64,000 nucleotides of DNA from Gloeobacterales cyanobacterium. GTDB lineage: Bacteria; Cyanobacteriota; Cyanobacteriia; Gloeobacterales; PMM-0068. The notes under the pieces are model-generated. The model worked only from the letters and a program-made list of their open reading frames with translations, was not told the DNA's origin and made no database searches. Location: the NCBI GenBank assembly GCA_038245785.1, contig JBBRSB010000002.1:1-64000 (forward strand). The letters are read 5' to 3'. Positions 5,170-24,186 of this stretch are shown in pieces. A program made the position numbers and the translations under genes. Position 1 is the first letter of the stretch, and every line of letters starts with the position of its first letter.

Positions 5170-5497
5170 TCTACCTGCTTGTAGATTAACTTTTACTATT
5201 TATAAGAATTACTCTTAATCAATATTTAAGTCCATTCAGAACTATCCCTGAATTATGACCATCAGATAGACCATTGGGCACAAATTAAGAATGATTCTTC
5301 TCAACGGGCTGATAAGTAATGCCGCTAGTTATATGGCCAAACATTTGGATGGTCACTTCTCATTGGATACATGTAAAAGTAGTATATTTAATTCTTGTTA
5401 GGATGCTCCCGATTCAGACAGTTCTAAGGGTTTCTACGGAGAGTTTAAACATTACATATTTTGACTGACTGATCTGTGGCAAAACGTACAAAATCTA

Positions 5498-6190
5498 TCA
5501 GAGCATATAGGTTCGTTCCAGATACTTCTGAATGTCCGCACTTTCAAACATTTCCGTCCCTGTGTTTGGATCTGCAAGATAAGGAAACATCATCTTGCCA
5601 GAGCGTTCCACGAAGGCTGTACGGCTGGGGCTATCCTTGCCCATGTTGTGCAAGAGATAAGGAAGTTCCAGTTCGCAGAGGGTTTCTCGGACCATGCGAC
5701 TAAACGGTGAACTTTCAAAGCTCCACAGTTCGAGAGACTTTTCGGGTAGGCGAGATGGACGCACGTTTTGGCCTTTGTTCAGCCTAGCCAAAGTAGCAAA
5801 TCCAAGACTGGCCATTACTACAGGGTTATCTAAGGTCACAGGCACCTGGTCATTGCCATAGGTAGCAAACAAATAGCGAACGATATCGCTGGATTCATAC
5901 ATAGCCTCGCCTGTATTCGGGTCTACCAGATAAGGAAACATCAAACGTCCACCCTTTTCTTGGACCACGGAACGATAGCGAGTACCTCCCTTGGGGCAGG
6001 GATAAACCTTCACTTCTAAGTCAAGGATGGTCAGCGCTTCGCGCACCTTACGGCAGAAAGGACAAGCTTCAAATTCATAGAGCTGTAAAGGCTCCTTGGG
6101 CCGAGGACCGAGCGGACCGACCCAGATCCCACTTCCCAGCCGAGCAAGCGTTGCCAAAACCGAAGTGCCTAAATCAAGAACATCCGCCAT
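5498..6190 (-). CDS. Tandem glutathione S-transferase N-terminal (glutaredoxin-like) domain protein
   Basis: YEFEACPFCRKVRE and FESSPFSRMVRE repeats, each with PYL.DPNTG..M.ES. Confidence 0.9.
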   Translation of the reverse strand: MADVLDLGTSVLATLARLGSGIWVGPLGPRPKEPLQLYEFEACPFCRKVREALTILDLEVKVYPCPKGGTRYRSVVQEKGGRLMFPYLVDPNTGEAMYESSDIVRYLFATYGNDQVPVTLDNPVVMASLGFATLARLNKGQNVRPSRLPEKSLELWSFESSPFSRMVRETLCELELPYLLHNMGKDSPSRTAFVERSGKMMFPYLADPNTGTEMFESADIQKYLERTYML

Positions 6191-6419
6191 TGGTCATCAC
6201 CTGAGTACTACCCACAGGATGTCACAGCATTCCCTGATTGAGCTTAAACAATGTGATTTGCACCTAGAAGAGAAAGCTAGGGAATAAAGTGAGTTCGGGT
6301 TAAGAAGGCCCATAGGTCAAGCTTAGGAAGGAAGTGCTTTCAGACTTTAGAGCTCAGATTAGCTAGTGCAAAATGAAACCTTTTGTCAAGCTTACCTTCA
6401 CTAGCTATCAAATCTTTTC

Positions 6420-6791
6420 TCACGGGAGAGAGAAAATTGCTCTGAGCCCCACTTCGATAGGGCTGTATTGCTCTGCTGTCAGTTGCCCTCTCCGCTTGTG
6501 CACCCTTGTGGTATCGATGCTCACCACCTGATCAAGAAGGACGATGGAATCAGACCTTAGCCCTGCTGTCCCTGACGGGATATGCGGATACAGACTAGGG
6601 GAGATTTTAGCCCAAGACTGTCCTCGGTCTGTGGTCAGCGGAACCACCATTATCAAATCGAAACGGGGAGTCCCTGCCTGACGTGGAAGTCCTACAACAA
6701 TAGCGGGGCGATACCCTTCTTGCTCATGACCCTGGGGATTTTTTTGCGGGAAGCGGATGGTCAGGATATCTCCAGGATGGAGTGTAGTCAT
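6420..6791 (-). CDS. PemK/MazF-family toxin
   Basis: GD..., GHEQEGYRPAIVV, VVPLTT, SIVLLDQV motifs. Confidence 0.9.
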   Translation of the reverse strand: MTTLHPGDILTIRFPQKNPQGHEQEGYRPAIVVGLPRQAGTPRFDLIMVVPLTTDRGQSWAKISPSLYPHIPSGTAGLRSDSIVLLDQVVSIDTTRVHKRRGQLTAEQYSPIEVGLRAIFSLP

Positions 6792-7156
6792 TGAGCTTCA
6801 CTGACGATGAAGGGTTCCCCTTCTTCTAATTCTCCCGGCTCCCAGTCGTAGGGCTCATAGTCTTCTAATCGGGAAAGGTCTGCATTAAGCCAGTCCCTAT
6901 CTTCCTGGGTCAACCCTCTTGCGTCTTCTGGAAGCGTTGGAGGTGCTGGAACCAGAAGAATCTCTCCACTACTCACCTTGGCCAGTAAAGTCCCAAGATG
7001 TGGTTTGCCTGCATAAAAACATCCATACTGAGTCGCCAAGACTTCCAGAGCCTTGCGCGTTTGTTTACTCATCCGCATAGTTACTGTCTGGTGATCTAGC
7101 CGGGGTCGCTTTCCCCGTTTTTCAATGAGTCCTTTGACGTTACGCTGATGAGGCAT
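6788..7156 (-). CDS. Probable antitoxin of the MazF toxin
   Basis: ATGA overlap with the toxin; basic N-terminus with an RHH-like segment (TVTMRMSKQTRKALEVLA); acidic C-terminal tail. Confidence 0.6.
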   Translation of the reverse strand: MPHQRNVKGLIEKRGKRPRLDHQTVTMRMSKQTRKALEVLATQYGCFYAGKPHLGTLLAKVSSGEILLVPAPPTLPEDARGLTQEDRDWLNADLSRLEDYEPYDWEPGELEEGEPFIVSEAQ

Positions 7157-7430
7157 TATGAATTCAGCAAATTACACTATCATATTAGTGCTTAGCGTAC
7201 GTAAATACACTAACTTTATTAGTCTTCTCAATATTTTTGCAAGTCCAGAGCACTCCAGTAGACTAGTAGGTTAGGAGCCTACAAAAATGTATTGAAAATG
7301 TATTGAATATGTGGAGATTTACCAGCAGGAAGGTCGTGCCCTTTCTAACCCAGTCGCTCTTCAACTGGTTAGACTTCTACTCCTGCACCCGTGCAGCTTT
7401 ATTGGCGGACATTGAGGATATCAAAATTCC

Positions 7431-8120
7431 CTAACGTTTAGGTCGTTGTTCCCATATATATTTGTATAGTTGATCGATGTCTTCTTTGTCCTTGCGCGAG
7501 CAACATTCTGAGTCATCCCATCCTTGAGAAGTATTATTTTCGACCTTTATAGGAACTGGATATCGTCCCTGCCAGAAAATAAAACGGGTTAATTTCTTGA
7601 GTAACGACTTTTCTTCTTCAGAAATACGAATATTAGTTAAATCCAGTAGCTTTTCGAGGTCATGCCTTGCAAAGGCTCGACTGAGGCTCCCATCTGGTTG
7701 TACATGATGAGAATGCTTAGCGATAATGATGCCTTTGAGTAAAAGTTCGATGGAAAGACCTGACATGTAGAAATACACTAACTTCAAATTCATTTCTGAA
7801 ATTGCTTGATTTAATTGTTCTCCAGTGAAAGGGAGTGGTAAGTCTAGTCCAACCGTATTTGTTATTACTCTTGAATACAAAAGTTGATCTACTTGGTCCC
7901 AAAAGCTCCGTCCTTTATCAAGCTTCTCAAAAATAACGCTTGCCGCAAACCTATAAACTTCTGAAATTTCGTACCAACTTTCTGGTAGGGAGCCAGCATG
8001 TATAAACGCTTGCTTATGATAACGTGCCGAAAAAGTGTACCAGCTAGCGGGAAGTTGTTCTGGCTCCAGTTCTTCCAAAGGATATTCAGGCAAGGTAACC
8101 TCTCTTTTCGCAAATTTCAC
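7431..8120 (-). CDS. HEPN-like domain protein
   Basis: SIELLLKG...HDLEKL...RYP pattern of the HEPN superfamily; AT-rich. Confidence 0.5.
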   Translation of the reverse strand: MKFAKREVTLPEYPLEELEPEQLPASWYTFSARYHKQAFIHAGSLPESWYEISEVYRFAASVIFEKLDKGRSFWDQVDQLLYSRVITNTVGLDLPLPFTGEQLNQAISEMNLKLVYFYMSGLSIELLLKGIIIAKHSHHVQPDGSLSRAFARHDLEKLLDLTNIRISEEEKSLLKKLTRFIFWQGRYPVPIKVENNTSQGWDDSECCSRKDKEDIDQLYKYIWEQRPKR

Positions 8121-8475
8121 AAAAGGGCTAGCCCTTTATAGTTCCCGCTATAGCCCTAAAAATAACCCGCTAAATTGATTAATTTTGAATAATACAGTAG
8201 GTGCCAACAGAGACGTATTTTTGTCATTAAAAAATTCTTAGCCCAAAGAAAATCAGCATGCCGTAGATCCTTCTGCTCAATGGAATGTGTCCCGGCAAGT
8301 TGCGCCAGACAGGCTTTTGGAGAAAAGTATAGGTCTGTGCCTCGGTGAGTTAGTTCATTAGATCTCTTCTTCAGACCTTTGACACAAACTTATTTGCGCT
8401 CCCAGTGACGATCAGACTATTTAGATTTGGCCATTCCAAGGGAAAAATAACCTTACACGCTATTGAAGATTAACT

Positions 8476-8790
8476 ATGTTAGCCCAGATTACTGCAACGA
8501 TTAGCGCCATCGTTATTGCACTTGGAGGCCAAGGAGTTAACCCATGTACTAGCAAAACTGGTACTGAGGGAACTAAAGGTTTTATCTGTTTTGAAAAAAA
8601 TGCCGATATTGCCTGGGGTGGAGATATTAATGGAGATTTTATCGAACGTGTAGATTTCCGAAATAAGAACCTAACCCTTAAACAAACAATGGATAATCGT
8701 GAAGTTAAATCCCTTAAAGAATGGAAAGCCATGGCTAAGCGGGCTGAAGATAAGCGCGAAGCCGGTAAAGCTTCTATCTGGCAGTTCTAG
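8476..8790 (+). CDS. Small hypothetical protein, paralog of 10075-10389
   Basis: Shares ITATISAIVIALGG and VK.L..WK..AKRA...RE with 10075-10389. Confidence 0.65.
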   Translation: MLAQITATISAIVIALGGQGVNPCTSKTGTEGTKGFICFEKNADIAWGGDINGDFIERVDFRNKNLTLKQTMDNREVKSLKEWKAMAKRAEDKREAGKASIWQF

Positions 8791-8896
8791 TTGTTATTCT
8801 CTAACAACCAATGGGCACTATATACCAGAACAAACTAATCCCCCCTGAGGGTTGAAACTTTTTCACATGCTCCTGCACCCATCTCTACATACATAA

Positions 8897-9862
8897 ATGG
8901 CGATAGAGTACAAACCTTGGTCATTTGATTATTTTTGGAATAAAGCTGTTGTCTATGCTGCTCGCGCACATAAACAAGACCGAGAAGGAGAAGAATTCCC
9001 TTTTTGGTCACTGCTCACGTTGGAGCTTATTGGACGAGCCGCTCTCGCGCATACTCATCCTGCTCTTCTTGCTGATAGTAAGAGTGATGATAATGTGATG
9101 ACAGCATTTGGCTTTAGAAAAGATAAAGAGCCACGTTCGATAGCAGCTAATCTCGTCTTCCAGCGCTGTTCAGTCATTGTGGAAGCATTTTCAGATACTG
9201 ATGTTAAGAGATGCATTGGCTTAATGGAGTTCAGAAACCGGGAGGTTCATACAGGTGAACCTGTTTTTGCCGGATGGTCAACCTCAGAATGGTTATCTGA
9301 CTATTACCGAATTCTTAAGATTTTGGTAACACATGTCGGAAAGACTCTTGAAGACCTTCTCTTAAGGAAAGAGGACATTGCTCATGCTGAAGAGCTAATA
9401 ATCGCAGCTGAAGCAAAGAATATCACCGAAGTTACTCAACGAGTTAATAACGCTAAAACATGTTTTGATGCACTATCAGATGATGAACATGAGCAGAGAC
9501 GTGCTGAGTCAGCTCGTCATAAATTTGTAAAACCAAATGGACGAATAGTAAGTTGTCCTGTTTGTTCATCTGATGCAGGTTTGTTTGGCAATCTTTTACG
9601 GAGAACCGAAGATCACTTAGATGAAGGCGAGCTAGTGAGTGAACTTACCCTTCAACCATCAGCCTTCATATGTACAGCATGCGGTTTAAAGCTTGGCTCT
9701 CTAGCAGATCTCTTCGCCGCATCAAAAAACAACAATGCATTCGCGTCTATGATAAGCCCATTTACACTCACGGAAAGAACTTCAATAGAAGAATATTTTG
9801 AGGAGTATTTTGAAACTGACCGATCAGATTACCTAGAGTCTAACTACCCGTCTAACCGCTAG
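8897..9862 (+). CDS. Putative HEPN (R-x4-H) plus Zn-ribbon protein
   Basis: LELIGRAAL helix, FRNREVH motif, C-terminal CPVC...CTAC. Confidence 0.55.
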   Translation: MAIEYKPWSFDYFWNKAVVYAARAHKQDREGEEFPFWSLLTLELIGRAALAHTHPALLADSKSDDNVMTAFGFRKDKEPRSIAANLVFQRCSVIVEAFSDTDVKRCIGLMEFRNREVHTGEPVFAGWSTSEWLSDYYRILKILVTHVGKTLEDLLLRKEDIAHAEELIIAAEAKNITEVTQRVNNAKTCFDALSDDEHEQRRAESARHKFVKPNGRIVSCPVCSSDAGLFGNLLRRTEDHLDEGELVSELTLQPSAFICTACGLKLGSLADLFAASKNNNAFASMISPFTLTERTSIEEYFEEYFETDRSDYLESNYPSNR

Positions 9863-10074
9863 GTCGCAATTGTTACAAGCATACTTTCAAGATAGTTAAC
9901 AGCACTTATTCCCTCCTGGAAGATGGCTGCTCAAGAATAAAAACCCCTCTTTGACCAGTGCATTACAGGACCCTACGGCATAGTCTCTAGTCCTGCCCTC
10001 GCGCCAAACGGTAAAGCAAGTTTTGGAATGGATACCGAGCTGTTGTGATTGAATAGCTTGGTGGGGAAGGCTGT

Positions 10075-10389
10075 TTAGAATTTACTACTTTTGGGTTCCC
10101 AGCCTTGCTGCTCACGCCTCTTCTGTGCCCGCTTGGCTAAAGTCTTCCATGCTATGAGTGTTTTCACTTGATGCTCTTCTGGGCGCTTACTTACACCGTC
10201 ACGGTATACAAGTCTGCCATCAAAAGTACCCATCCACGATGTTCCATTCCGATAATTGTCGCTCCCTTTCTCCCAGCACAAAAAATATCCTGGGGTAGAC
10301 AAAGATTGTACGCATCCGGGCTCAGTAAGACCATATCCACCTAAAGCAATAACAATAGCCGATATGGTTGCTGTAATTTCTTCAAACAT
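10075..10389 (-). CDS. Small hypothetical protein, paralog of 8476-8790
   Basis: Shared N- and C-terminal motifs and two central Cys. Confidence 0.65.
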   Translation of the reverse strand: MFEEITATISAIVIALGGYGLTEPGCVQSLSTPGYFLCWEKGSDNYRNGTSWMGTFDGRLVYRDGVSKRPEEHQVKTLIAWKTLAKRAQKRREQQGWEPKSSKF

Positions 10390-10742
10390 AAATGACTTCA
10401 GGGCAAGTTAAGAACACTACTGTATGCACATCAACACGGCTTGAAGCTTACCTCGCACATTGAAAAGATAGCTTTGCGCTTTCCTCTCAAAGGTGAGCAA
10501 CAACTGCTCTAATTAATATTCCCGGACGCGGCAAGAGTATAACTAAATTTGTCTCAGTCGCCGCAATCGTAAGACCGCAGCCGTATCAATATCAATGCTC
10601 AGTTTTGTAATGGACGCCGATGGTCCGAACCGTTGTGGTCATAGTCTTAGTGTCGATAGTAACCGCTGGTGTTCTGGCACTCTTGTAAATGTAGTATATG
10701 CGACAATTAGTTACATTTCCTGAAAAAGGGGGTGATTAAAAG

Positions 10743-10865
10743 ATGACAAAGCAAGGCAGACAGTATAGAGATGCTGATTCAGGTCGGTATATCCCTAAAA
10801 AGTATGCTGACCAGCATCCCAAAACAACTGTCTCTGAACCACGACCAAAACCAAAGGGTAAATAA
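10743..10865 (+). CDS. 40-aa basic microprotein (not in ORF track)
   Basis: MTKQGRQYRDADSGRYIPKKYADQHPKTTVSEPRPKPKGK*; GGGGGTGA RBS upstream; downstream hairpin CCGACTG...CAGTCGG near 10898-10918. Confidence 0.65.
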   Translation: MTKQGRQYRDADSGRYIPKKYADQHPKTTVSEPRPKPKGK

Positions 10866-11193
10866 CACACGTTTGGCTGCTTAAATGCATGAGATGGACC
10901 GACTGCGCTAACAGTCGGCCCTTATTGTACACACGGAAGTGATCAGATCAATTCAATGCTCGGTGTTTAGGCGAGCTCACCGATTAGTTAATAACAAATG
11001 GAGTGGAGAGGCGAAGGCCGCAGTAGTGGGCGCTACGTTCAAGGAAAGTAAACCCTGCTTACTCCTTCCAAACAGGGCTACGCAAGGTATGAGAACTTTT
11101 TTTGGATCGGTGCATCACGGGTCCCCGTCAGCGTAGTCTTTTGCCCTACCCCTGTATCTTGTCCATATGTACAACTGTGCATACAATAAAGCT

Positions 11194-11460
11194 ATGGCGT
11201 ATCAATGGGACAGAGATAAAGCTGCAACCAATCTCCTCAAACATGGAATTGATTTTGCTGATGCTGTCTCTGTTTTCTCTGATGATCGAGCGATAACAGT
11301 ACCTGATGAGCGCTTTGACGAGGAGAGATTCGCCACGATGGGCATGGATGCTTCAGGCCGAGTGCTTGTGGTGGTGTACACCTAGCGTGGAAATGAGATT
11401 CGCTTGATTTCCGCTCGACCTGCGAATCGTCATCAACGCAAACAATATGAAGAGGGATAA
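11194..11460 (+). pseudogene. BrnT-family toxin with in-frame amber stop
   Basis: WDRDKAATNLLKHGIDFADA...VVVYT-[TAG 11383-11385]-RGNEIRLISARPA...EEG*; the frame continues past the stop. Confidence 0.85.
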
Positions 11461-11463
11461 ACG

Positions 11464-11718
11464 ATGGAAACAGAATATGACTTCAGCAAAGGGAAACGGG
11501 GTGCTATTGACCCCGTGGGTGCTGGGAAAACGCGCATCACTATCCGCCTGGATGATGAGGTATTAGCCTGGTTTCGAGAGCAGGTTCATTTGACGGGAGG
11601 TGGAAACTATCAAACCCTAATAAACGAAGCACTAAAAGCCTATATCCAACAGACCCACGAGCCTTTAGAAGCGACGTTGCGGCGTGTATTACGAGAGGAG
11701 TTGGGCAGTTATGAGTAA
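11464..11718 (+). CDS. BrnA-family antitoxin
   Basis: EYDFSKGKRG, KTRITIRLDDEVLAWF, YQTLINEAL motifs; directly follows brnT. Confidence 0.9.
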   Translation: METEYDFSKGKRGAIDPVGAGKTRITIRLDDEVLAWFREQVHLTGGGNYQTLINEALKAYIQQTHEPLEATLRRVLREELGSYE

Positions 11719-11896
11719 CTGAGAAACAAAACCGAATTTAGTTAACAAAGTTTAGGCACTTAAAGATGAAAGTCCTCTGGATCCCTATCAGTGTGACCTT
11801 TTGCTCTGCCATCGTATCCCAAAGCAGAGGCTTTCTTGCCCTTCGATCGATAATAAAATAAAGAATAAAGGCATGCCCCTTAGTTGGAGAAGCAGG

Positions 11897-12145
11897 ATGA
11901 CTAAAGAAACCGTTTTACTCGAATGCTGGAGAGAACTAACGCCTGAAGCTCAGGATCGGGTTTTGGAATTCGTCCAAGCATTGAATCCACACAAAGAGTC
12001 TACGGAGTTCATACCTCAAACTCCTCTTGGCAATAAACTCTGGGAGATTCGGCAACGGGCTATTTCAAAAGGACTGCAACTACTTTCTGAAAAGGAGCTA
12101 GAGGAAGAACTGGCAGACCGCAGAGGCGGGTATCGTGAGGCTTAA
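11897..12145 (+). CDS. Probable antitoxin of the PIN toxin
   Basis: ATG at 11897; WRELTPEAQDRVLEFV...TPLGNKL...EELADRRGG; overlaps the PIN gene. Confidence 0.65.
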   Translation: MTKETVLLECWRELTPEAQDRVLEFVQALNPHKESTEFIPQTPLGNKLWEIRQRAISKGLQLLSEKELEEELADRRGGYREA

Positions 12146-12545
12146 GAAAACCTATATTGATTCAGGTGTACTGATAAACGCCTTTCGTGGAACCACAGAA
12201 GTCAGCCTTAAAGCCACTCAAATCCTTGATGACCCGATAAGAGAATTCGCTTCCAGTCCGTTTGTCAAGCTAGAAGCCTTACCCAAAGCCATCTATCACA
12301 AGCAGCAAGAAGAGACTGAATTCTATGAAGTCTTCTTTGCAGCTACCAACCATTGGGCATATGACCTAGAACAGATTTTCAAGACAGCCGATCACATTGC
12401 CCGTACCTATGGACTGGCTGGTATGGATGCCTTACATGTTGCGGCTGCTCTCTCTATTGGAGTAGATGAGTTAGTGACAACGGAAAGAACTACCAAACCT
12501 ATGCATCGGGTAACTGAGGTTCGGATTGTTTCAATAGCAAACTAA
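12135..12545 (+). CDS. VapC-like PIN-domain toxin
   Basis: YIDSGVLI, conserved E, and MDALHVAAA acidic residues. Confidence 0.88.
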   Translation: MRLKKTYIDSGVLINAFRGTTEVSLKATQILDDPIREFASSPFVKLEALPKAIYHKQQEETEFYEVFFAATNHWAYDLEQIFKTADHIARTYGLAGMDALHVAAALSIGVDELVTTERTTKPMHRVTEVRIVSIAN

Positions 12546-12697
12546 AGGAGCGAGGTTGTGATGTATGAGCGTTAAGGCATCAGCAGCTTTACTCGAAAGT
12601 TCGGAGGCAAGCGGGTAGGGACAGAATAGGTTTCAGCGAGGGTTTGGCCAGAAAGAACGCCAGATAGTCCACCGTATAACGCTTTGCCCTCTGCAGC

Positions 12698-13153
12698 TTA
12701 ACTCGAACTCACATTTGTATCTTCATTCGTCTCGCGAACTTTGGCATGAGAGCCTGGCCAAGAGTCGTGTTGTGGTAGACCATCGGTGATCTCAAACCAG
12801 GGGGACTTCGAGCCAACGAAAATGTGCCCTTCTGGTTTGTTGTTCGGTGCTTGATCCAATCCGCCCAATGGAACTCCAATCTTGGTGGGATCGTTGTCGT
12901 AGGTGCTTATCAAATTTGAGCCGCAAACGGAGCAGAAGTGCTTTACAACACACTCCGACGAGTGATAGCGGGACAACAGTTCTTCGCCCTTAGTCCACTT
13001 GAACTGCGAGACCTTGATCGTGGCGCGGCTTCGGAAGGCGGAACCGTGCCACCGTCGACATTTTGAGCAGTGGCAATGAAAGATTGGGCCAAGTTCGCCC
13101 TCAATTTCGTAGGTAATTCCCTCGCAAAGGCAGCGACCCGTAAGTAGTTGCAT
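12698..13153 (-). CDS. GFA/CENP-V family protein
   Basis: GRCLCEG, CHCSKCRR, FCSVCGS Zn motifs. Confidence 0.92.
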   Translation of the reverse strand: MQLLTGRCLCEGITYEIEGELGPIFHCHCSKCRRWHGSAFRSRATIKVSQFKWTKGEELLSRYHSSECVVKHFCSVCGSNLISTYDNDPTKIGVPLGGLDQAPNNKPEGHIFVGSKSPWFEITDGLPQHDSWPGSHAKVRETNEDTNVSSS

Positions 13154-13218: not shown

Positions 13219-14625
13219 CTAGAGCTTATGGTAAAGATTATAAATGCGGCGCACTTGCTCTTGAAAAGCGGCTCCTTTTGCTGGGTCTACCATACAAACG
13301 AAATTAGCAAAACCAGATAGGGAGGCCAAGAGGTCTTGCGCATGGCCCCAATGTTTGCCTTCTAATCCGTCCCGTTCGATTTGATAAAGGGTGGCTCGGA
13401 AGCGTTTGAGCTCTTTGCGGTCAATGCCTAGTCGGTCATTCACTACAATTCCAGTCACTTCCTGCTGACGACCCTTGCGTAGAACACGGGTTTTGTCGGG
13501 ATGAATGATAAAGCCTTCCTGCTGGACAAGGAAAGCCACGCGTCTGAGGAGCGTGTTTACCTGCTGGATAGGCCCACCAGAAGCAGAGAAGGTGAGGTCA
13601 TCGGCATAGCGCGTATAGCGAAATCCCAGCTTCGTTGCCATCGTGGTTAGGCTCTGGTCTAGCTTGCGACAGAGCAGATTGGTAATCACAGGACTGGTCG
13701 GTGCGCCTTGGGGCAAATGACGTTCGGTGTGGGCAACGAAGTACTGTTTACGGTCTAGTTCAAGGGCTGTGATCTCTGGTTCTGTGCAGAGGAGAGCAAA
13801 GACCGTAGCGGCTGCCTCTGAATAGCCAAAGGCCTTGAATAATCCTTTGACCCGGCGATAGGTAATGGTGGGAAAAAAATTCTGGAGGTCTAGATTGATA
13901 ACCACATCAGACCCAACATGAGGCTGGGCATTGGAGACAATAGAGCGACCGGGACGAAACCCGTGGGCGGCTTCATGGAGCTGAACTTTTTCTAAGATGT
14001 TGTGCATCACCCAGTACTGGGCTTGCTTTAAGCGGGGCATCGGAGCTGAGATCGTGCGCTCACCGCCTGTCTTCTTGGGAATCGTGAAGCGGACGTAGTG
14101 AGAGACAGTGGACGTCCGACGGGCAAAAGCTAGAAATCGCAGGGCTCCGAGCGCAATGTCCATCGCCTGGGCAATTTCTTCTGCGCTGCCATAGGGTGGT
14201 AAACCGTAGCTGGCTAGGCGTTCTCGGTCGCATTCCATGGCATTGAGGCCAGCGGAGACGCCTTCGCCTAGATAGAGCAGTGCATATTGTTTACGTTGTT
14301 GCCAGACTTGAGCCCGTTCTATGCGTTCTTGTTCACGCCGTTCTTTATTCTCTTTTTGCTTCTGGCGGGAAGCTTCTAGTCTAAGTTTGCGGGCCTCTTT
14401 GCGGAGCTGCTCTTCATTGTTTAGGCGGCGGCTTTCAGCGTATAGGTCGTTCAGTTCTCTTTGCAGTTCTGCCCGACGGCGAATCTCATCCGCTGGGTCT
14501 TGAGGCACTTCTCCCTGACGAGGCCAAAAGCCAAGCCGGATCATCTCTTCCAGGATGAATTCATCTTTTGAGGTCTGACGAATCCGGTCGTATAGTTCTT
14601 GGCGGGTTCTGGGTTGTTCAGACAT
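13219..14625 (-). CDS. Retron-type reverse transcriptase with long N-terminal extension (type XIII-like)
   Basis: IPKKTGGER.I, AHGF, retron region X NAQPH (NAxxH), LPQGAPTSP, RYADD, region Y QEVTGIVVN. Confidence 0.95.
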   Translation of the reverse strand: MSEQPRTRQELYDRIRQTSKDEFILEEMIRLGFWPRQGEVPQDPADEIRRRAELQRELNDLYAESRRLNNEEQLRKEARKLRLEASRQKQKENKERREQERIERAQVWQQRKQYALLYLGEGVSAGLNAMECDRERLASYGLPPYGSAEEIAQAMDIALGALRFLAFARRTSTVSHYVRFTIPKKTGGERTISAPMPRLKQAQYWVMHNILEKVQLHEAAHGFRPGRSIVSNAQPHVGSDVVINLDLQNFFPTITYRRVKGLFKAFGYSEAAATVFALLCTEPEITALELDRKQYFVAHTERHLPQGAPTSPVITNLLCRKLDQSLTTMATKLGFRYTRYADDLTFSASGGPIQQVNTLLRRVAFLVQQEGFIIHPDKTRVLRKGRQQEVTGIVVNDRLGIDRKELKRFRATLYQIERDGLEGKHWGHAQDLLASLSGFANFVCMVDPAKGAAFQEQVRRIYNLYHKL

Positions 14626-14671
14626 TTAAACAAAACCTCAAGGGCATTGGTAGTCTGCCCTTAAAAACATG

Positions 14672-14902
14672 ACGCACACCAGATGGAAGGAGGCCCTTCG
14701 GAAATGGCCCAGGACTGGGTCGCTCAACTCAAGCGGGGACCCTACTACCCGTCTGGAAGCTGTGCAGGAGCCACCCCGTGAAGGATGGGTAGTAGGGTCC
14801 CCGCACAGTTAAGAGTGAACCAGTGATGCGTGGTTGGACAGAGTGCATGGACGGCGATTCACCGCCCGGATTGCAAGGTCTAGCCCCTTCCACCGGATGC
14901 GC
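14672..14902 (-). ncRNA. Retron msr-msd ncRNA
   Basis: Terminal arms 14883-14902 and 14672-14694 pair over about 20 bp with GU pairs and bulges. UAG follows the 5' arm (candidate branch G at 14880). msr hairpin GGCGG-UGAA-UCGCC. msd stem has a perfect 18-bp inverted repeat (14733-14750 with 14787-14804), extended by 14714-14725 with 14813-14824. Confidence 0.85.
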
Positions 14903-14908
14903 AACGCA

Positions 14909-14914
14909 GTTATA
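14909..14914 (-). promoter_or_regulatory. Candidate -10 element for the retron ncRNA/RT transcript
   Basis: TATAAC on the minus strand about 7 nt upstream of the ncRNA 5' arm (14902); no well-spaced -35 seen. Confidence 0.35.
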
Positions 14915-15028
14915 ACCTATCACGGTCGCAATTTCGCATTTATCAAGATTTTGTGAAACCTGAGACTATAAAAATTACAGCTTTTGGTCTCGTCTATAGA
15001 TGCTTCCTAGAAGCACTTAGTTTTCGAG

Positions 15029-16537
15029 TCAGCCGAAAAATTGGTCATATGCTGCTTGTAAAAACTTAGATTTAGGCTTGATTTCACTAAGCGCTATTTT
15101 TTTATATTCTATTAATGAATTGTGAAAATCATCAGTTCTACGAACAGGATCGCTTAATTTATACTTCATGAATTCAATTAATTCATCTCTTGTATAGTAT
15201 TTGGCAATTAGCTCTAAGGTCTCTACTGATAAGTTTTGCACTCCTTGACAGACTTCCTCTAAGTCATTGAATTCTTTTTTTGCAAACTGGAGCAAGATAT
15301 TTGTATTGCCAAAGTAGAAATTGCCAAGTGTTATAGTCAATGGAAAAACTTTAGCATCAGATGAGAATCCAGGAATAGACCAGACATTATTTTTAAGGTG
15401 ATTGATGTTCTTTTTAAGTTGCTTCATAGCATCACGAAGCGTAGTGTTTATATTGCTTTTTATGTCTTGAATATTATTACGTGTTTTAGTTTTCAACGTC
15501 AGCATAGATTTTTTGCACTCTATAAGAACTAAATCTTCTCCTTTAAGCCAAAACCAATCAGCAGGTCCTTTTGTTTCTGACTTATTCACCTTCCCAGGCA
15601 TCTCAGCCATAAGCTCTGTGCTGCCCGTCATGTCCCTCAAAAGTTCTCCAACATATTTCTCAAATATCTTGCCAAATTCATTAGTGAAAGTCTGTCCATC
15701 AGCACTTAGCAAAGTATAGTAGATACCCCAAGTGATTTTCTGTTGAAGCATCTGAATCACAGGTACTACAAGTGTACCGTCCTGACACTTGATAATTGGT
15801 TTTTCATATAAAGGGTTATAAGCATAACGTTCCTGCTCAGGAACACCAGTTTCTCTAGCCCTGCTCTCGGCAATATTACGAAATTCATTATAGTCGGATT
15901 GAGTTTGTGCAAGAAAAAGTTCAACCTTGGATCTGTTAAATACTTCATGACCGTCTATTAGCAAATTTTCTATTGAGACAGTTCTGTTTTCTACTGCTTG
16001 AATATAAAGACCAAATCCAATGGTCATGAAATCACTGATGGAAAGATTTGTAATCTCCTGGAATCTTGAAGAGGGAGAATAATTTAAGTTTTGGATCGTT
16101 GGAGGTAGCATCTCCATCAGGGCATAGAAACGAGCTAGCTGATCTTTAAATTGTTTTCGAAGAGTATCTTGATCTGCCAGGAGCCTAACTAAATGAAGTA
16201 AGTGATTTTCATTAAAGAGATTCTCATCAGCAGTTACTGTACTATTCAAAAGGGGAGTGAAAAGATCCCAAGCCCCCATGCAGGAAATATTACTCCTCGC
16301 AAAAATTTGTTTGGGTTTATGGTCATTTGCTGTCAGGATACTGGTCTTACATATAAATGCAAGCTTTGAATCCTCAGAAAGTTTAGTGTCTAATACAGCT
16401 TGCTTAAACTGGATGTCACTACTCTTAAACAGAGGACTTCGGACTGAACTAAGGAGATTACTCATCATCAACACATCCTTAGTTTTGTACCTGCGAATCG
16501 AGTCAATAGACTCACTTAGACTCATATATTTATCCAA
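15029..16537 (-). CDS. AT-rich hypothetical protein with C-terminal PD-(D/E)XK-like nuclease motif
   Basis: GKIFEKYVGELL...GPADWFWLKGEDLVLIECKK; visibly more AT-rich than flanking genes. Confidence 0.6.
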   Translation of the reverse strand: MDKYMSLSESIDSIRRYKTKDVLMMSNLLSSVRSPLFKSSDIQFKQAVLDTKLSEDSKLAFICKTSILTANDHKPKQIFARSNISCMGAWDLFTPLLNSTVTADENLFNENHLLHLVRLLADQDTLRKQFKDQLARFYALMEMLPPTIQNLNYSPSSRFQEITNLSISDFMTIGFGLYIQAVENRTVSIENLLIDGHEVFNRSKVELFLAQTQSDYNEFRNIAESRARETGVPEQERYAYNPLYEKPIIKCQDGTLVVPVIQMLQQKITWGIYYTLLSADGQTFTNEFGKIFEKYVGELLRDMTGSTELMAEMPGKVNKSETKGPADWFWLKGEDLVLIECKKSMLTLKTKTRNNIQDIKSNINTTLRDAMKQLKKNINHLKNNVWSIPGFSSDAKVFPLTITLGNFYFGNTNILLQFAKKEFNDLEEVCQGVQNLSVETLELIAKYYTRDELIEFMKYKLSDPVRRTDDFHNSLIEYKKIALSEIKPKSKFLQAAYDQFFG

Positions 16538-16567
16538 TCAAGAGTGGTGCCACATGTTCTACTCAGC

Positions 16568-18217
16568 TTAGGGTTGCACAAAGCTCTGGCCATGTTTGCG
16601 GCGTAGCGCCAGAATATGCTCACAGGGACCTTTAAATAGCTTATTCTGCTGGTGCCAGTTGCAGGTGCATTCGGCACTGACGATCCGCTCATCCGCATCA
16701 ATGATCAACGTTGGAAGATAGGTTTGTCTAGTGGTACGAACTTTGCCTTGGAGGAAAAGTACGGCATTGACTTCTGTGGCGGAGGTGACCTGAACGCCAT
16801 CGGACTGTTCGAGGAATCGTTCTGCGGCTTCTTCCCGAGGATTGGCAAAACGCAAGCTTTCTAAAGGCAGCGGGTCTTGGCTCAATTCCCGTACCCGATA
16901 GACCCCTTTATTGAGGTCATAGATCACGCGTCCGGCTTGAGTGTAGGCTCCGAGGGCCCCAAGCACGAGAGAACGGTCTAGTTTCAGCCGTTGGGCAAGA
17001 CTGTCTGCACTTTCGGCCCAGTTTTGTTTCAGAGCATTAAAGATTCCTTTCTTGGTGAGGTCATCAACCTGGGTGCGGGGAGCCAAGAGGTCAAAATTTC
17101 CGGATTTAGACCAGTCGTTCGTGGTCCAACCGGAGAGACCCAAGGTGAAGGACAGATCCCCTAGATCGGCCACGTAGAAAGAAGGAAGCCCCGTGCCTAG
17201 CAGATGGACCGTAAACTTGCGGGCGACTGGGATTAAACGTTCGAGGATATGAATACGGCGGCGGCCCCAGACCCGAATTGTCTGAGCGGTGCGGCCTTGA
17301 TAAATTGAGCGAGGACAGACCACTTCTAAGTCCCAAGGGTCAAAGACAATCCGCACAGGCTCTCCCGGCACCAAGTGATAGCGCATACTGCGGGGGCCTT
17401 TTTTCTCTTTATGACGACGGAGGATAAAGCAAAGGTTGTAGACATCCATCGGTTCTAGATCAAAGGACACCAGGGGTAAGGACATCGCGGAACTGACTTG
17501 AAGAAAGCCTCGAACCCAACTGTCCGGCAGATCAATTTTGACTTCTTTGTACTCTTCTTCGCCCGTAGTTTGCACCTCGAAGCCAGAAGGGTCTACTTCG
17601 AAGCGGGTCTGCTTATAGGTGCGGATTTTTTGGAATTCGTCATAGAGAGCAGCGGAGTAGTCAATGTTGGTTGTCCCGCAGGAAAAGTCACCGACGTTTT
17701 GGAAGACTTCATAACTGGCTCCCAAGCGCCCATAGCTCGATTCATCCTGGCTGAAGCACTCAAAGAACACTTCATCGGGATGGACCGTAATCACCGGGTC
17801 TAAGACGAACCAGGCATCCCGGTCTTTCTGATAGAGATAGTCGAAATACCGCTTCTGAGACCGATAGTAACCACTCATCCGTTCAGAACTGCGCTTAGTT
17901 AAGACATTCAAGTCCTGCTGAAGTTCACGGATACGGTCAGCCGTTTGTTGGCGTTGGGCGGCCACCAGTTGCCAATCAATCTGTTCTTGGCGAACGGCCC
18001 ATTCTAGATAAGCGGTTCGGTCTTTCGGCTTGAATCGCAGGTCTGAGACTACTACATCATGAAGGGCACTGATTGCTTCCCGGAAAGCAATATTCTGCCT
18101 GAGGTTCCCCAGGAAATAGACAGGTGCGCGCTTAAGGTCGGGGGCAAAGGACATCCGGGTATCACCGCCCCGGTCTAAGACGGCGCTATTCCCTTTGTAG
18201 GCGTAGTTAAATTCCAT
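16568..18217 (-). CDS. SWIM zinc-finger protein (retron type XIII-associated)
   Basis: C-terminal CTCNWH...GPCEH (CxC...CxH); N-terminal coiled-coil; DPVITVHPD..FFECFS. Confidence 0.85.
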   Translation of the reverse strand: MEFNYAYKGNSAVLDRGGDTRMSFAPDLKRAPVYFLGNLRQNIAFREAISALHDVVVSDLRFKPKDRTAYLEWAVRQEQIDWQLVAAQRQQTADRIRELQQDLNVLTKRSSERMSGYYRSQKRYFDYLYQKDRDAWFVLDPVITVHPDEVFFECFSQDESSYGRLGASYEVFQNVGDFSCGTTNIDYSAALYDEFQKIRTYKQTRFEVDPSGFEVQTTGEEEYKEVKIDLPDSWVRGFLQVSSAMSLPLVSFDLEPMDVYNLCFILRRHKEKKGPRSMRYHLVPGEPVRIVFDPWDLEVVCPRSIYQGRTAQTIRVWGRRRIHILERLIPVARKFTVHLLGTGLPSFYVADLGDLSFTLGLSGWTTNDWSKSGNFDLLAPRTQVDDLTKKGIFNALKQNWAESADSLAQRLKLDRSLVLGALGAYTQAGRVIYDLNKGVYRVRELSQDPLPLESLRFANPREEAAERFLEQSDGVQVTSATEVNAVLFLQGKVRTTRQTYLPTLIIDADERIVSAECTCNWHQQNKLFKGPCEHILALRRKHGQSFVQP

Positions 18218-18236: not shown

Positions 18237-21200
18237 TTACCGGGGAGTAGAAGATAGCTGGGGTGAGCGCCGTATCGGAGGGATAACCCGAATCGGCGTG
18301 GAAATTTCTGGGTACGTCCGGTGAATCTGGACCATTAGTTCCAGGGCGGTTGCCTTATCCCCGATGGCGATGGTCAAGGATTGGCGGGTCAGAATCTCAC
18401 TGACAATACGGGCCGCTGTTTCATGCTTGAGCGCTTCTTGGCGCAGGAAATCAAAAATCCGGGCCTTGGCTACCCGTCCCCGATTAACAGCCGAAAGGAC
18501 CCGCACAAAATAGGGAGCCAATTCTGCTAGACGCTCCGGGTTATCAGCGGCGTAGTCTGCCAGATAGTTGGTAGCAAATAGCTGCAGTCCCGCCGAAGGA
18601 TGCTCGCTCAAGCGCATCAGGTAGTGCTGACCATGCCCACCCTGGAAGTGCTGGGTAATCAGCTCACGGCCAAAAGCCTGCACCTCTTCCCGTACGCTGT
18701 CGCAGATGCTGATCAGTAGGTCTGGCGTACATTCTTCTGGCTGGAGGTGGGTGGTAAGTAGCTCCCGACCAAAGGCTCTGGTGTCTTCCCATCGACCATC
18801 CAGAAAACGGGCAGCAATCAGCAATTGCTGGGGGTCTTGGCGGAGCTGAGGGAATTGCTGGAGGAATAGAGAACGGGCTGCCTCGCGCACCGCCAGAATT
18901 TCATGATTAGCTAGTTTGACCAGTTCTATCGGCTCAAAGGCAGAAGCCCAATCGGTGTAATGAGTTTGGAGGGCGATACCGCCAAGTTCTTGGGCGGCAG
19001 AAGACTTCGCTTTGAGCAAGCTTAAAGCGAGATCCGGAGAAGCCCCGATTATCCACTGAGGGATGTCCTCGTTCAGAACCCTAAGCAGATCGTTATGCAC
19101 GCCTTGATGTTGTTCACGGCGCAAGAGGACCTGAATCAGCGTTTGGGCAAGTCGTAGGGCAAAATCTGGGTGCTGACTGCCTAATTGACGGATTACGGGT
19201 CGAATGGCACTGCGGAGGTCTGGCTGTTCATGACTGGCGAGGACGGCGAATAACTCTTCTTGATTAAGCAATTGTTCCTGAGAGAGTTGGCTGAAAAGAC
19301 GAATGCCCACGGCCCGAATCGCTTCATGGGCTGAATTAATCAAGCTTGCCATCAGACCTAAGGGCAGCTGTTCTACGGGCGTTTCATGATTGAGGAGGAT
19401 ACGCCCACCCAGTTCTTGCACTTCTAAAAGCGGATGATGGAGCAGGTCAAGGACTATATCTAAATTCAAGCGGCGCATCTGTGGACTAAAAACGGTGAGC
19501 AGTAAATCCCCAATCTCTTTTACGCTTTGGACCGTCTCTGGGGTCGCAGCCATCAGACTAGCGACAAGGCGCATGACCAAAGCCTCACTCACCTCAGGGT
19601 TTAGAACTGAAGCCGTGAGCAAACGACAGGCAAAGGCACGGGTGTCGGCAGAGGAACTGTTAATCAGGGCGGATAGGAAGTGGGTATTTGCCAGAAAAGC
19701 TTCGCGATTCTGCTCTACCCAGCGATAGGCGGTAGTGCGAGCGGTTGTATCAATACAATGGGCTGCCGCCAGGACCAAATCCAGGTTAGGGGCTGTGGGC
19801 TGATAACGTGCTTGGGCGAGTTCAAAAATGAATTGAGCGGTTCCTTCGTAGGGTGTGCCTAAAAGGCGAATGAGCACGGAGAGTTCTACCTGAACCCAGA
19901 AGGCCGGACACTCCTTAAACACTTTGACTGCGAACCGATGGACTTCCTGACACGTGCTTTGCTCTAAAAGGCCCACAAGCGCTTGAGGCTGCTGTTCCCA
20001 CAAATGAGGAAAGGCTTCTTCTCGCTCAATGGGGACAGGACCTCCCGGTCTATAGGTCGGACGGCAACGCCAGGTCCGACCATTATTTTTCAGAAAGTAG
20101 CGGGGACTATGGGTATAGAGGATGTGATTGAACGGCAGATAGTTCGCCCAGCTATCCCAACGGGTCGTCTCTGTGATGCTCCGTCGCTGTCGGGAGTCAT
20201 AGCGATGGATGGTGTTCTCTTTCGGCGGCAGGGCATCCGCATCGCTGTAGGCCAGCAATACGCCCGCAGCCATCGGTACATAATCTGAGCTTTCTAAGAT
20301 GCCTAGTTTGCGGAGGGTGCGCCAGGTCCGACGACGCAGATATTCACGGGTGCCACTGCTGTAGGCATAGGTAGCCTCTGGCGTTTTTAGATATTGCTTA
20401 AATTCTTCATTAGAAAAGTAGCGGTAGCCTCGTCTCTGGCTTGCATCTTCCATGTACATGCCGTAATCAGGAGAAGGACTCTTGTACGCTGCTCTTTCTT
20501 TTTCAAACCGATAGGATAAAAGGCCGAAGACTTCTCCATCTCTTCGGTACTCTGCCACTTTGAAGATGTGACGTACGTGCCGAAAGGAGCCATGTTTCAG
20601 GGAGATAGTCCGGAGCAGTTCAAGCAAGGCTGGACGGACGGTGCTATCGCCAGAAATATATAGAGTTTCTAAGAGTGCGAAACCCTGGGTTGGGTTCTCT
20701 GCCAGCTCTGTGCGTAGGTTGGTAACCTGTTCCTCCGTTGAGCTAAAGGAGCCAGAATCCATCAGGGCTCGTACCCGCTCAGGCCAGAGGGATAGATTTT
20801 GCTGTTGTCCTTGGCTGCGGATGTCAGGAGCCAGTTTGAAGATAGCTTCCAGGCTAATCCGCTGTACCGCTTCGGTCGTATTAGCCTGATTTAGTAACTG
20901 CTGGAGGGCAGGGACCGCGCTGGGGTCTCCACACCAACCTAAAGCCCAGGCAAGACAGTAATCTCTGAGGGCATCACCACTGCCGATCAGCCGGACTAAT
21001 AAAGGGGCCGCTTCTCCAATCTGTAGTTCTCCGGCCCGCCAGATAGCTCGCTCTAAGGGCCATTTACTCTTGGCGGCAGTTTGTCTGGAACTGAGGACAT
21101 TTTGGACAAAGCGATTGAGCTGCCCGGTCAGGGTGGAAACTGCTCCCTCTTCCTCCAATCGTTTGAGAACGTTACACTTACGGGCTTCTGGGTCTATGAC

Positions 21201-21485
21201 GGATATGCGCTTAGGGGTTGGAACAGGGGCAGGTGCGCTTGGTGCATCGCCTTCCTGATAGCCCTTTTTGACTTTGGAGGCAACCAGTTTGTCAAAGGCC
21301 CGCTGGGCTTCATTCAAGGGAAGGGCCTGTACGGTTTCTACGCCCTCTCTCAGGTTGGAGCCTCTACGCCCATAGCGGAAGTTAACCACATAGCGCCCAG
21401 GACTGACCTCACAAAGGTCTACTTCATAGACTTTGTCTGAGCTGCCTTCGCGGTAGTAGAGGCTGGTCCGTTTAATCAGTTGCAT
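18237..21485 (-). CDS. WGR-domain plus HEAT/ARM-repeat protein (retron type XIII-associated)
   Basis: N-terminal SDKVYEV...FRYGRRG...FDKLVASKVKKGY (WGR); long helical repeat region (WALGWCGDPSAVPAL). Confidence 0.85.
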   Translation of the reverse strand: MQLIKRTSLYYREGSSDKVYEVDLCEVSPGRYVVNFRYGRRGSNLREGVETVQALPLNEAQRAFDKLVASKVKKGYQEGDAPSAPAPVPTPKRISVIDPEARKCNVLKRLEEEGAVSTLTGQLNRFVQNVLSSRQTAAKSKWPLERAIWRAGELQIGEAAPLLVRLIGSGDALRDYCLAWALGWCGDPSAVPALQQLLNQANTTEAVQRISLEAIFKLAPDIRSQGQQQNLSLWPERVRALMDSGSFSSTEEQVTNLRTELAENPTQGFALLETLYISGDSTVRPALLELLRTISLKHGSFRHVRHIFKVAEYRRDGEVFGLLSYRFEKERAAYKSPSPDYGMYMEDASQRRGYRYFSNEEFKQYLKTPEATYAYSSGTREYLRRRTWRTLRKLGILESSDYVPMAAGVLLAYSDADALPPKENTIHRYDSRQRRSITETTRWDSWANYLPFNHILYTHSPRYFLKNNGRTWRCRPTYRPGGPVPIEREEAFPHLWEQQPQALVGLLEQSTCQEVHRFAVKVFKECPAFWVQVELSVLIRLLGTPYEGTAQFIFELAQARYQPTAPNLDLVLAAAHCIDTTARTTAYRWVEQNREAFLANTHFLSALINSSSADTRAFACRLLTASVLNPEVSEALVMRLVASLMAATPETVQSVKEIGDLLLTVFSPQMRRLNLDIVLDLLHHPLLEVQELGGRILLNHETPVEQLPLGLMASLINSAHEAIRAVGIRLFSQLSQEQLLNQEELFAVLASHEQPDLRSAIRPVIRQLGSQHPDFALRLAQTLIQVLLRREQHQGVHNDLLRVLNEDIPQWIIGASPDLALSLLKAKSSAAQELGGIALQTHYTDWASAFEPIELVKLANHEILAVREAARSLFLQQFPQLRQDPQQLLIAARFLDGRWEDTRAFGRELLTTHLQPEECTPDLLISICDSVREEVQAFGRELITQHFQGGHGQHYLMRLSEHPSAGLQLFATNYLADYAADNPERLAELAPYFVRVLSAVNRGRVAKARIFDFLRQEALKHETAARIVSEILTRQSLTIAIGDKATALELMVQIHRTYPEISTPIRVIPPIRRSPQLSSTPR

Positions 21486-21488
21486 AAC

Positions 21489-22913
21489 CTACACCAGTTT
21501 TTTAATCGTGCCGTACGTCCGATAGAAGTCGCCTCTGGCCGCTTGACGTACTTCTTCTACGAGATAGCGTGCCCCAGCTTCCCGGATATCCTTAGGAAAT
21601 TGAATCCTCCAGTCCCGGTTATAGCCTGGCGCGATCACCCGCATTCTTAATCGGCCTTCTTCCTGGAAGCACTCAAGGATTACACCCTGCTCGCTATCCG
21701 TCGTCGTTTCCAATTCAGCCGTGAGCGGCAGAGATTCTACGCTCTTCGGTGCCTTGATATCCACGGCCAGCGGTACGGTGCCCTCTTGGGCCTGTTGAAT
21801 CGCTTGTTCGCTAGCATCGATACAGGTGAGCATGCCTTCGGTGGTGACGATATAGAGTTTGTGATCGAGAAACTGCATCGATAGAGCAGAACCACAGCCT
21901 GTTCCTAGTTTCCAGAGACGCTTTCCATCATGGTCGAAGCAATAAATAGAAGAGCTACTGTCTCCGGCGAAGACATAGGCGCCCTCTTCCGCACTGGCAC
22001 AGGAATAGACCGTGTCATCGCAGTTATAAATCGCTTCTAGTCTGCCTTGCTTGGTAAAGCAATAAACCTTGTTATCACTGGTCCCGGCATAAACCGTAGC
22101 TTCTTCCTGCCAGCCAAAAAGTACGCTCCCCTGCGTAGGTTGATGCCAGATTTGACGGCCATCTTCCCAGTCATACATGGTGACGCCACTGCTGTGACCG
22201 TGGAAAACGCCAATCTCGTCACAGCGGACCATCCAACCGGAGGAGCCTTTACTCCGCCGAGACCACTGGGATTCATCTTCATGGTTAATCGTGGTGATAT
22301 TGCCTTCGGAATCGGAGACCCCGAGAATGCCGTCTTTAATATCGAGCCAGTAAATATCCACATCGCGCGCAATTTTATAGGCCACACGAGGGACTTTACC
22401 GCCTAAGTCGTACACTTTACCGTCGTCACATCCTGCATAGATCCAGCTATCGTCGGCTACCAGGCATTTGACGCCATCGGCGAGACGAAACTGGTTACGC
22501 ACCTGCCCCTGGTGGTCCACCGCAAAGATATGCCCCGCCTGGTTGCCGACCCAACAATATTTTTGGTTAATAAAAATCCCAAAGGTTGGATGGCCCGAGT
22601 TAAAACGCCAGAGAACGGGGGCCTGCTTCGCCGTGGAACGCTTACTGGTCACTTGCCTGCGGGTGATCGCTCGCTTGGCGCGTACGCCTGCTACCGCATG
22701 TTCATAGCCTTTGCGCAGCTTTTCATTAATCTTTTTGGTCGCATCCGCTTGCGCTTTCTCAGCCGTAGCAAAGCTGCTCACCTTAGTCTGCCCCGCGTCT
22801 CCGATACGGCCATAGCGGAGGGTCACCTGCGTTCCGGCAACGATGATTTCATAGAACTTGTGGGAACCGCCCTCTTCTTCCGAGAGCTCCAGATAGGTTT
22901 TTGTCTCTTCCAT
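21489..22913 (-). CDS. WGR-domain plus beta-propeller protein
   Basis: SHKFYEI...LRYGRIGDAGQ...KLRKGY (WGR); repeated YAGCDDGKVY/YAGTSDNKVY/FAGDSSSSIY blades. ATG 22913 preferred. Confidence 0.85.
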   Translation of the reverse strand: MEETKTYLELSEEEGGSHKFYEIIVAGTQVTLRYGRIGDAGQTKVSSFATAEKAQADATKKINEKLRKGYEHAVAGVRAKRAITRRQVTSKRSTAKQAPVLWRFNSGHPTFGIFINQKYCWVGNQAGHIFAVDHQGQVRNQFRLADGVKCLVADDSWIYAGCDDGKVYDLGGKVPRVAYKIARDVDIYWLDIKDGILGVSDSEGNITTINHEDESQWSRRSKGSSGWMVRCDEIGVFHGHSSGVTMYDWEDGRQIWHQPTQGSVLFGWQEEATVYAGTSDNKVYCFTKQGRLEAIYNCDDTVYSCASAEEGAYVFAGDSSSSIYCFDHDGKRLWKLGTGCGSALSMQFLDHKLYIVTTEGMLTCIDASEQAIQQAQEGTVPLAVDIKAPKSVESLPLTAELETTTDSEQGVILECFQEEGRLRMRVIAPGYNRDWRIQFPKDIREAGARYLVEEVRQAARGDFYRTYGTIKKLV

Positions 22914-23049
22914 GGGCCAGGGATTTTTACAGTGGGATAAATAAGTATGTCCCACCAGGCTTTGCTTTTTATCACGAGGCCAGGTTATCCTTCAAAATCT
23001 TCAATTGAAGGTATGATGTCAAGCCTAGTTTTCATAGGGCAACATTGCT

Positions 23050-24131: not shown

Positions 24132-24186
24132 TGGTGGTCCACTGCAAAGATATGACCCGCCTGGTTGCTGACCCAACAATATTTTT
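24132..24186. repeat. 55-bp copy of an internal segment of the WGR-propeller gene (22510-22564)
   Basis: Manual alignment gives 3 mismatches in 55 nt, same orientation. Confidence 0.85.

Follow-up and report, generated by a model that had tools for sequence, protein, structure and literature searches.

GAPS1, a Vibrio protein, defends against phages as a single protein: the T7 capsid protein triggers it, and dormancy results (Mahata et al., bioRxiv 10.1101/2023.03.28.534373, accessible in part). According to the same partial source, mutation of either D313 or K328 abolishes defense, and three E. coli GAPS1 homologs (24–29% identity) protect without a partner. A second phage-protein sensor, Upx, has one domain at its N-terminus (NTD, amino acids 1–515) and one at its C-terminus (CTD, amino acids 715–1272) that includes a catalytic core (residues 1121–1272), and both halves cleave single-stranded DNA (PMC13099982, accessible sections). 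Two papers disagree about its trigger, which is given as gp16 or as terminase, the latter being a predicted N-terminal binder (PMC13099982 and PMC13601566, accessible sections). Type XIII retrons consist of a WGR-ARM protein, a SWIM protein, an ncRNA, and a clade-10 reverse transcriptase (RT) (Mestre et al. 2020, PMC7736814, accessible in part). Our literature search lay mostly outside subscription journals; in it, we found no functional study of type XIII retrons (including the accessible part of PMC13712802), and no paper on the insertion of a GAPS1-like gene in a retron. Here, we describe a GAPS1-like gene that lies within a type XIII retron.

An AT-rich gene in the SWIM–ncRNA slot of a type XIII retron

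The window analyzed here, a 64,000-nt stretch of a Gloeobacterales cyanobacterium genome (contig JBBRSB010000002.1, positions 1 to 64,000), carries a complete type XIII system (WGR-ARM, SWIM, ncRNA, and RT) on its reverse strand. The gene run begins with a 488-aa protein containing WGR and beta-propeller domains (positions 21489–22955; Pfam), a type of gene that is also found near SWIM in some other type XIII loci. It continues with the type XIII WGR-HEAT/ARM protein (1,082 aa, 18237–21485; PADLOC WGR_XIII and Pfam) and the SWIM protein, which is the system's own associated protein (549 aa, 16568–18217; PADLOC SWIM_XIII, E = 2e−241) and whose closest relatives are cyanobacterial, and it ends with the ncRNA and a 468-aa RT (13219–14625; PADLOC RT_XIII, E = 3e−192). 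The ncRNA (msr-msd, approximately 14667–14907) was recognized from conserved sequence blocks and from folding, with an a1/a2 closing stem and a long msd hairpin. The blocks are conserved across 49 regions upstream of related RTs, and the closing stem had a fold z-score of −5.85, with none of 200 shuffled sequences as stable; no Rfam family corresponded to this ncRNA.

Between the SWIM gene and the ncRNA, on the same strand, lies an ORF of 502 aa when read from a TTG codon (15029–16537). The ATG of Met5 is the start in four of the eight aligned homologs, so a protein of 498 aa starting at 16525 is equally likely. An earlier sequence-only reading of this DNA had placed a 502-aa ORF on the operon strand 30 bp after the SWIM stop (16568) and had called it more AT-rich than its neighbors, and both descriptions agree with our coordinates and composition: the GC content of the ORF is 0.363, compared with 0.520–0.535 for the RT, SWIM, and two WGR genes of the operon, and it falls in the 0.8th percentile among the genome's 1,724 long ORFs. 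Alignment with close homologs showed that the frame ends in FFG-stop-LEN-stop (15017–15031), where the homologs read FFSWLEN or FFGWLDY; the late stop thus removes the four C-terminal residues of those homologs. There is no direct repeat longer than 8 nt bracketing the gene and no second copy of it in the source genome. An opposite-strand ORF of 104 aa (16257–16571) was regarded as a shadow of the coding frame.

The 30-nt spacer behind the SWIM stop (16538–16567) contains neither a sigma-70-like site nor a terminator. The spacer between the nuclease gene and the ncRNA (14908–15028) is short, as had been noted, although it is approximately 121 nt rather than 125 bp long; it has a low GC content down to about 14920, a small hairpin at 15001–15015, and, directly before the ncRNA, a TATAAC hexamer (14914–14909) that was recognized by eye and was missed by the consensus scan. 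Around the nuclease gene, promoter and terminator counts showed no excess over shuffled sequences.

Because an integron integrase is encoded at the start of the window (301–1266, forward strand; TIGR02249, 480 bits, above the cut-off), an integron-cassette origin of the gene was considered. It was rejected, since neither junction has an RYYYAAC or GTTRRRY box; a simple scan without a positive control found no attC site in positions 1–30000 of the window. Several other features of the genome were observed. The GC content is lower in positions 4500–12700, a patch in which the genes are small and include MazF-like, BrnA, and PIN toxin–antitoxin parts and several orphans, and two 104-aa ORFs (8476–8790, forward; 10075–10389, reverse) have a common N-terminus. 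A 55-nt direct repeat (22510–22564 and 24132–24186, 95% identical) places a piece of the WGR-propeller gene outside the operon. Contig C29 of genome G000 (approximately 50784–51551) encodes a second RT, which shares 32% identity with the type XIII RT across 280 residues.

Sequence relationship to GAPS1

The product of ORF 15029–16537 matched no Pfam family and no PADLOC family (0 families at E ≤ 1), whereas the flanking genes matched RT_XIII, SWIM_XIII, and WGR_XIII, so the earlier view that the nuclease does not belong to the type XIII core holds. Its sole NCBIfam match was GapS1 (NF047931; E = 4e−40, residues 110–428), with a score of 138 bits that is below the curated cut-off of 320 bits; because the cut-off was missed, we call the protein GAPS1-like and not GAPS1. 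GapS1 was also the only family match of all 34 sampled homologs, at 36–154 bits, all under the cut-off. A profile search showed that the family is large, with 2,868 representatives at E ≤ 0.001. In the ESM Atlas, the protein falls among clusters without a name, with a NERD lead covering 34% of one cluster; JGI annotates the cluster of the homolog P0002 as "polyhydroxyalkanoate synthesis regulator phasin," which was dropped because no matching family was found.

The protein has a helical N-terminal part (approximately residues 1–285) and a nuclease core (approximately residues 286–445) with E293, D327, E340, and K342. The segments FEKYV...GPADW...LVLIECKK had been read as an E...(P)D...ExK nuclease pattern, and the alignment of 131 homologs bears this out: E293 is conserved in 84 rows, D327 in 126, E340 in 128, and K342 in 115, with Gln at position 293 in 39 rows. 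The residue preceding D327 is Ala in place of the Pro that occurs in 59 of the 131 rows. D327 and K342 are 15 residues apart, as are D313 and K328 of GAPS1. Seven homologs with 49–91% identity have open frames of 483–513 aa, and in the three most distant of these, residues 286–350 are the best-kept stretch. Among the more distant of the close homologs, the helical N-terminal part shared 38–56% identity and the catalytic region 62–85%. Judged from its sequence, ORF 15029–16537 thus encodes a distant relative of the stand-alone anti-phage nuclease GAPS1.

Ten close homologs (P0002–P0007 and P0158–P0161) appear to be mosaics, in which blocks occur in differing combinations between alleles, and these alignments suggest that recombination may have taken place within the close nuclease clade.

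Predicted structure and resemblance to Upx

The AlphaFold model of the protein (pLDDT 92, pTM 0.93) has a predicted PD-(D/E)XK fold, that is, a restriction-endonuclease alpha/beta core carrying the E...D...ExK residues; modeling and structural comparison thus returned the nuclease fold expected from the motif. For the whole model, the best structural match was Upx (PDB 9WUF, residues 35–527; Z = 13.0, rmsd 4.3, 362 residues, 8% identity), and the matches beyond Upx were BspD6I (Z = 10.1), FokI (8.8), and Can2 (7.9), the last of which also gave a sequence match spanning the motif (E = 0.0015). When residues 1–285 were modeled separately, they matched a different part of Upx (residues 775–1115; Z = 11.1, rmsd 4.6, 225 residues), with the next match at 3.8; in Foldseek, Upx again ranked first for these residues, but with an E-value of 0.39. 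The segment at 775–1115 leads straight into the Upx catalytic core (1121–1272).

These matches suggest that Upx may be composed of two GAPS1-like units in tandem, a reading that comes from predicted models and a mostly helical fold. The identity in the structural alignments was 8–9%, and we found no link to Upx at the sequence level; no fused, Upx-like long relative occurred among 7,999 candidates, which is weak evidence. The term "GAPS1" appears 0 times in the main text of either Upx paper, the accessible parts of both papers (PMC13099982, PMC13601566) contain no mention of a duplication, and we found no paper that names both GAPS1 and Upx. A tandem arrangement would link two separately described phage-protein sensors and would predict the trigger-binding site of GAPS1-like proteins.

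The SWIM–ncRNA slot in other type XIII loci

We compared 84 other SWIM_XIII loci: 80 belonged to the best-scoring of 391 SWIM relatives, and 4 came from related genomes. None of the 84 contained a homolog of the nuclease, either by tblastn or by a profile search over 1,808 ORFs. The slot between SWIM and the ncRNA could be scored in 64 of these loci (of the 20 dropped, 19 had no ncRNA match within the DNA covered and 1 was inverted). It was shorter than 150 nt in 52 loci (median, 35.5), longer without an ORF in 4, and occupied by ORFs in 8. Half of these eight are inversions or rearrangements carrying the WGR-ARM gene itself, and the genes found in the other four bear no relation to one another, so describing the slot as a hotspot, as the sequence-only reading did, is too strong. 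Two genomes of the same order differ in this respect: in one (G011) the slot is empty, and in the other (G012) it holds an unrelated 679-aa protein. This protein (L011:5601–7640, reverse strand) had no Pfam, PADLOC, or NCBIfam match, and its N-terminus looks signal-peptide-like by eye. SWIM_XIII also occurs in two small genomes (G080 and G170; 1.7–1.8 Mb, complete).

The gap between the ncRNA and the RT is filled more often than the SWIM–ncRNA slot (17 of 43 loci). In 9 of the 43 collinear type XIII loci (L019, L020, L021, L022, L023, L024, L030, L068, and L086), an RNase III gene in this gap immediately precedes the RT and shares the strand of the operon, frequently together with NYN (five loci), as a Swt1-HEPN-RNase III fusion (two), or with HNH (one). 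An RNase III before the type XIII RT is therefore recurrent, whereas the GAPS1-like gene is not. It could be a dedicated RNase for ncRNA processing or an effector, or its recurrence could reflect common ancestry; we found no paper on RNase III beside a type XIII RT.

Homologs of the nuclease away from retrons

Twenty-six other GAPS1-like loci were examined: 20 are cyanobacterial and had wider flanks, 3 are from metagenomes, and 3 had 1.5-kb flanks; several are cut by contig ends, and five are of a distant 555–729-aa type. No SWIM, WGR, or ncRNA-core match occurred beside any of the 26, the neighbors were varied, and the homolog was usually more AT-rich than the surrounding DNA. The single RT match among them (L122) was of the group II intron type, as was the RT beside a plasmid match (H4; 2 of 28 plasmid matches viewed). 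Because the homologs with readable wider flanks are distant (approximately 20–28% identity), these loci are silent on the close clade. Four members of a cyanobacterial group of 720–729 aa (L131, L132, L134, and L135) match the nuclease part weakly, and they have a short C-terminal motif in common with the PADLOC PDC-S12 and E2 models.

Within the same 400 genomes, 20 had a nuclease homolog and 22 had SWIM_XIII; two had both, on different contigs (1.1 expected; Fisher p = 0.30, with kin not independent). SWIM_XIII was absent from 18 of the 20 homolog-bearing genomes and from all 11 of those with the strongest matches. These counts and the 26 loci agree in showing homologs that occur without type XIII retrons. 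In a tree of 55 sequences, the clade of the window was apart from three other cyanobacterial homolog groups, with weak deep support. When close homologs were sought with pattern scans, genome contigs and viral contigs yielded no locus, and metagenomes yielded just three, all distant, of which two are apparently one locus, and a search of 60 related genomes with a single protein as the query yielded no homolog.

Alleles in close relatives

Sequencing runs from three studies were compared with the window at 80% likeness, leaving out one run that is a possible source (X1). In these studies, the identity of the nuclease gene (90–93%) was inside the range of the retron genes (84–94%). Since the nuclease gene is about as diverged as the retron genes, it has resided in this lineage for some time and is not a one-off insertion. 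A single contig of run X3 spans positions 14240–15622 in one piece with 90.6% identity, joining the RT, the ncRNA, and the nuclease gene, and in run X2 a contig with the nuclease gene tracks the window to 14941 and has 392 more letters that lie outside the matches listed.

Run X8 contained two further arrangements, each seen in one contig among the matches listed. In the first, 16574 is followed after 27 letters by 14921, so that 1,652 nt are skipped (depth 49, short side 32 letters); here, SWIM apparently runs straight into the ncRNA leader, leaving an empty slot. The second joins 16632 to 14993 (depth 96, short side 53 letters), which suggests that the SWIM 3' end is repeated 36 nt behind the nuclease gene. 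The two joints would fit either the coexistence of alleles with and without the gene or a cassette that has SWIM-end repeats on both sides. Neither the slot of the window nor any of 15 other slots measuring at least 90 nt contained such a repeat of the SWIM 3' end, so the arrangement in X8 is not general.

Origin and probable role of the gene

We consider it probable (about 0.78) that ORF 15029–16537 is a horizontally acquired, self-contained GAPS1-like anti-phage gene that became lodged in a type XIII retron, where it separates the SWIM stop from the ncRNA. The observations behind this reading are the foreign composition of the gene, its GAPS1-like sequence, the intact E-D-ExK motif, the predicted nuclease fold, the absence of the nuclease from other type XIII loci, and the homologs that stand alone. 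Since related retrons lack the gene and its relatives in other places occur without retrons, it is most likely a passenger and not a new retron toxin. The earlier reading had left a choice between an independent defense gene and a swappable effector; the former is retained here, and the latter is disfavored by the 84 loci without a homolog and by the relatives without type XIII parts.

By analogy with GAPS1 and Upx, one polypeptide would act as both sensor and effector, and the likely sensor would be the helical N-terminal part, which varies more than the catalytic region does. The protein would stay quiet until it is bound by a phage structural or packaging protein, such as the capsid protein in the case of GAPS1 and terminase or gp16 in the case of Upx. 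The E293/D327/E340/K342 center would then cleave nucleic acid, and growth would be arrested. As no promoter stands out, transcription would probably occur by read-through from the WGR-ARM-SWIM operon across the gap of 30–42 nt. The gene may have arrived through recombination at the 3' end of SWIM, where one relative has a SWIM-end copy right behind the gene, and the insertion would have left the ncRNA and RT undisturbed. We propose that the RT and msDNA are dispensable for restraining the nuclease.

The alternative that survives best, though an unlikely one, is a neutral or decaying foreign gene, that is, a nuclease-fold protein with no current defense role in a tolerant gap. The loss of four residues through the late stop, the family score under the cut-off, and the non-defense appearance of other gap genes (peptidoglycan-binding, dehydrogenase, and VWA) would suit such a gene. 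However, all four motif residues are intact, the fold prediction is confident, the seven homologs keep open frames of 483–513 aa, and conservation in the three most distant ones is highest at residues 286–350.

More improbable still is a lineage-specific capture, in which the nuclease became a retron effector that is inhibited by RT-msDNA, or for which msDNA is a substrate mimic, and that is freed when a phage disturbs the msDNA. The gene is within the operon on the same strand, and its position is retained in a relative at approximately 91% identity. Moreover, retrons are modular and acquire effectors (PMC7736814, accessible part), and both of the Upx halves that resemble the model cut single-stranded DNA, which is the nature of msDNA (PMC13099982, accessible part). 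On the other side, a homolog occurs in none of the 84 further type XIII loci, SWIM_XIII is missing from 18 of the 20 homolog-bearing genomes, and a close relative apparently runs from SWIM directly into the ncRNA. Furthermore, the SWIM and ARM proteins that are conserved in type XIII are intact in this retron, as is the ncRNA, and GAPS1 and its three E. coli homologs protect without a partner (10.1101/2023.03.28.534373, accessible part). The proposal of a toxic effector neutralized by RT-msDNA, which would have defined a new subtype, is thus not upheld by either the loci or the one-protein nature of GAPS1. The predicted complex of the RT and the nuclease scored 0.00 and is evidence neither way. 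If a capture had nevertheless occurred, a stand-alone defense gene would have been caught in the course of becoming a retron effector, and, in this one lineage of cyanobacteria, a type XIII retron would have tamed a GAPS1-like "half-Upx" single-strand nuclease as a swappable nuclease effector.

Least probable is that the nuclease partners the SWIM or WGR-ARM proteins, and not RT-msDNA, as an add-on recruited by that scaffold: the gene is directly behind SWIM, and the X8 joint suggests that part of the SWIM 3' end travels along with it, but no SWIM or WGR gene adjoins the 26 other homolog loci, and no homolog is beside the 84 other SWIM genes.

If the gene is a passenger, it adds one more distant GAPS1-like gene and cautions that a place inside a retron operon does not make a gene an effector. 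The by-products of the analysis, namely, the tandem link to Upx and the natural slot variants, outweigh the finding itself. Because filled and apparently empty slots both occur in close relatives, the question of passenger or effector is easily testable.

Comparison with known systems

Type XIII clusters as described in the accessible part of PMC7736814 lack a PD-(D/E)XK gene, and the gene did not recur in the other loci examined here; the present locus differs from them in this respect. GAPS1 and the product of ORF 15029–16537 are both single proteins of approximately 500 aa with a C-terminal PD-(D/E)XK domain and equal D-to-K spacing, and the profile match covers 320 residues including the N-terminal part. 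The distant relatives of ORF 15029–16537, which have varied neighbors, appear solitary and horizontally mobile, whereas the close clade retains the retron site in at least one relative. The differences are the score of 138 bits against a cut-off of 320 and the location, which is inside a retron operon and, as far as seen, not in a GMT island. Upx, to which we liken the protein, is a single-gene defense triggered by a phage protein, and the two have in common a helical region, a nuclease core, and a fold, as predicted by modeling and at low identity. In contrast to Upx, which comprises approximately 1,270 aa with an NTD, a middle domain, and a CTD, the 502-aa product of ORF 15029–16537 would correspond to one unit.
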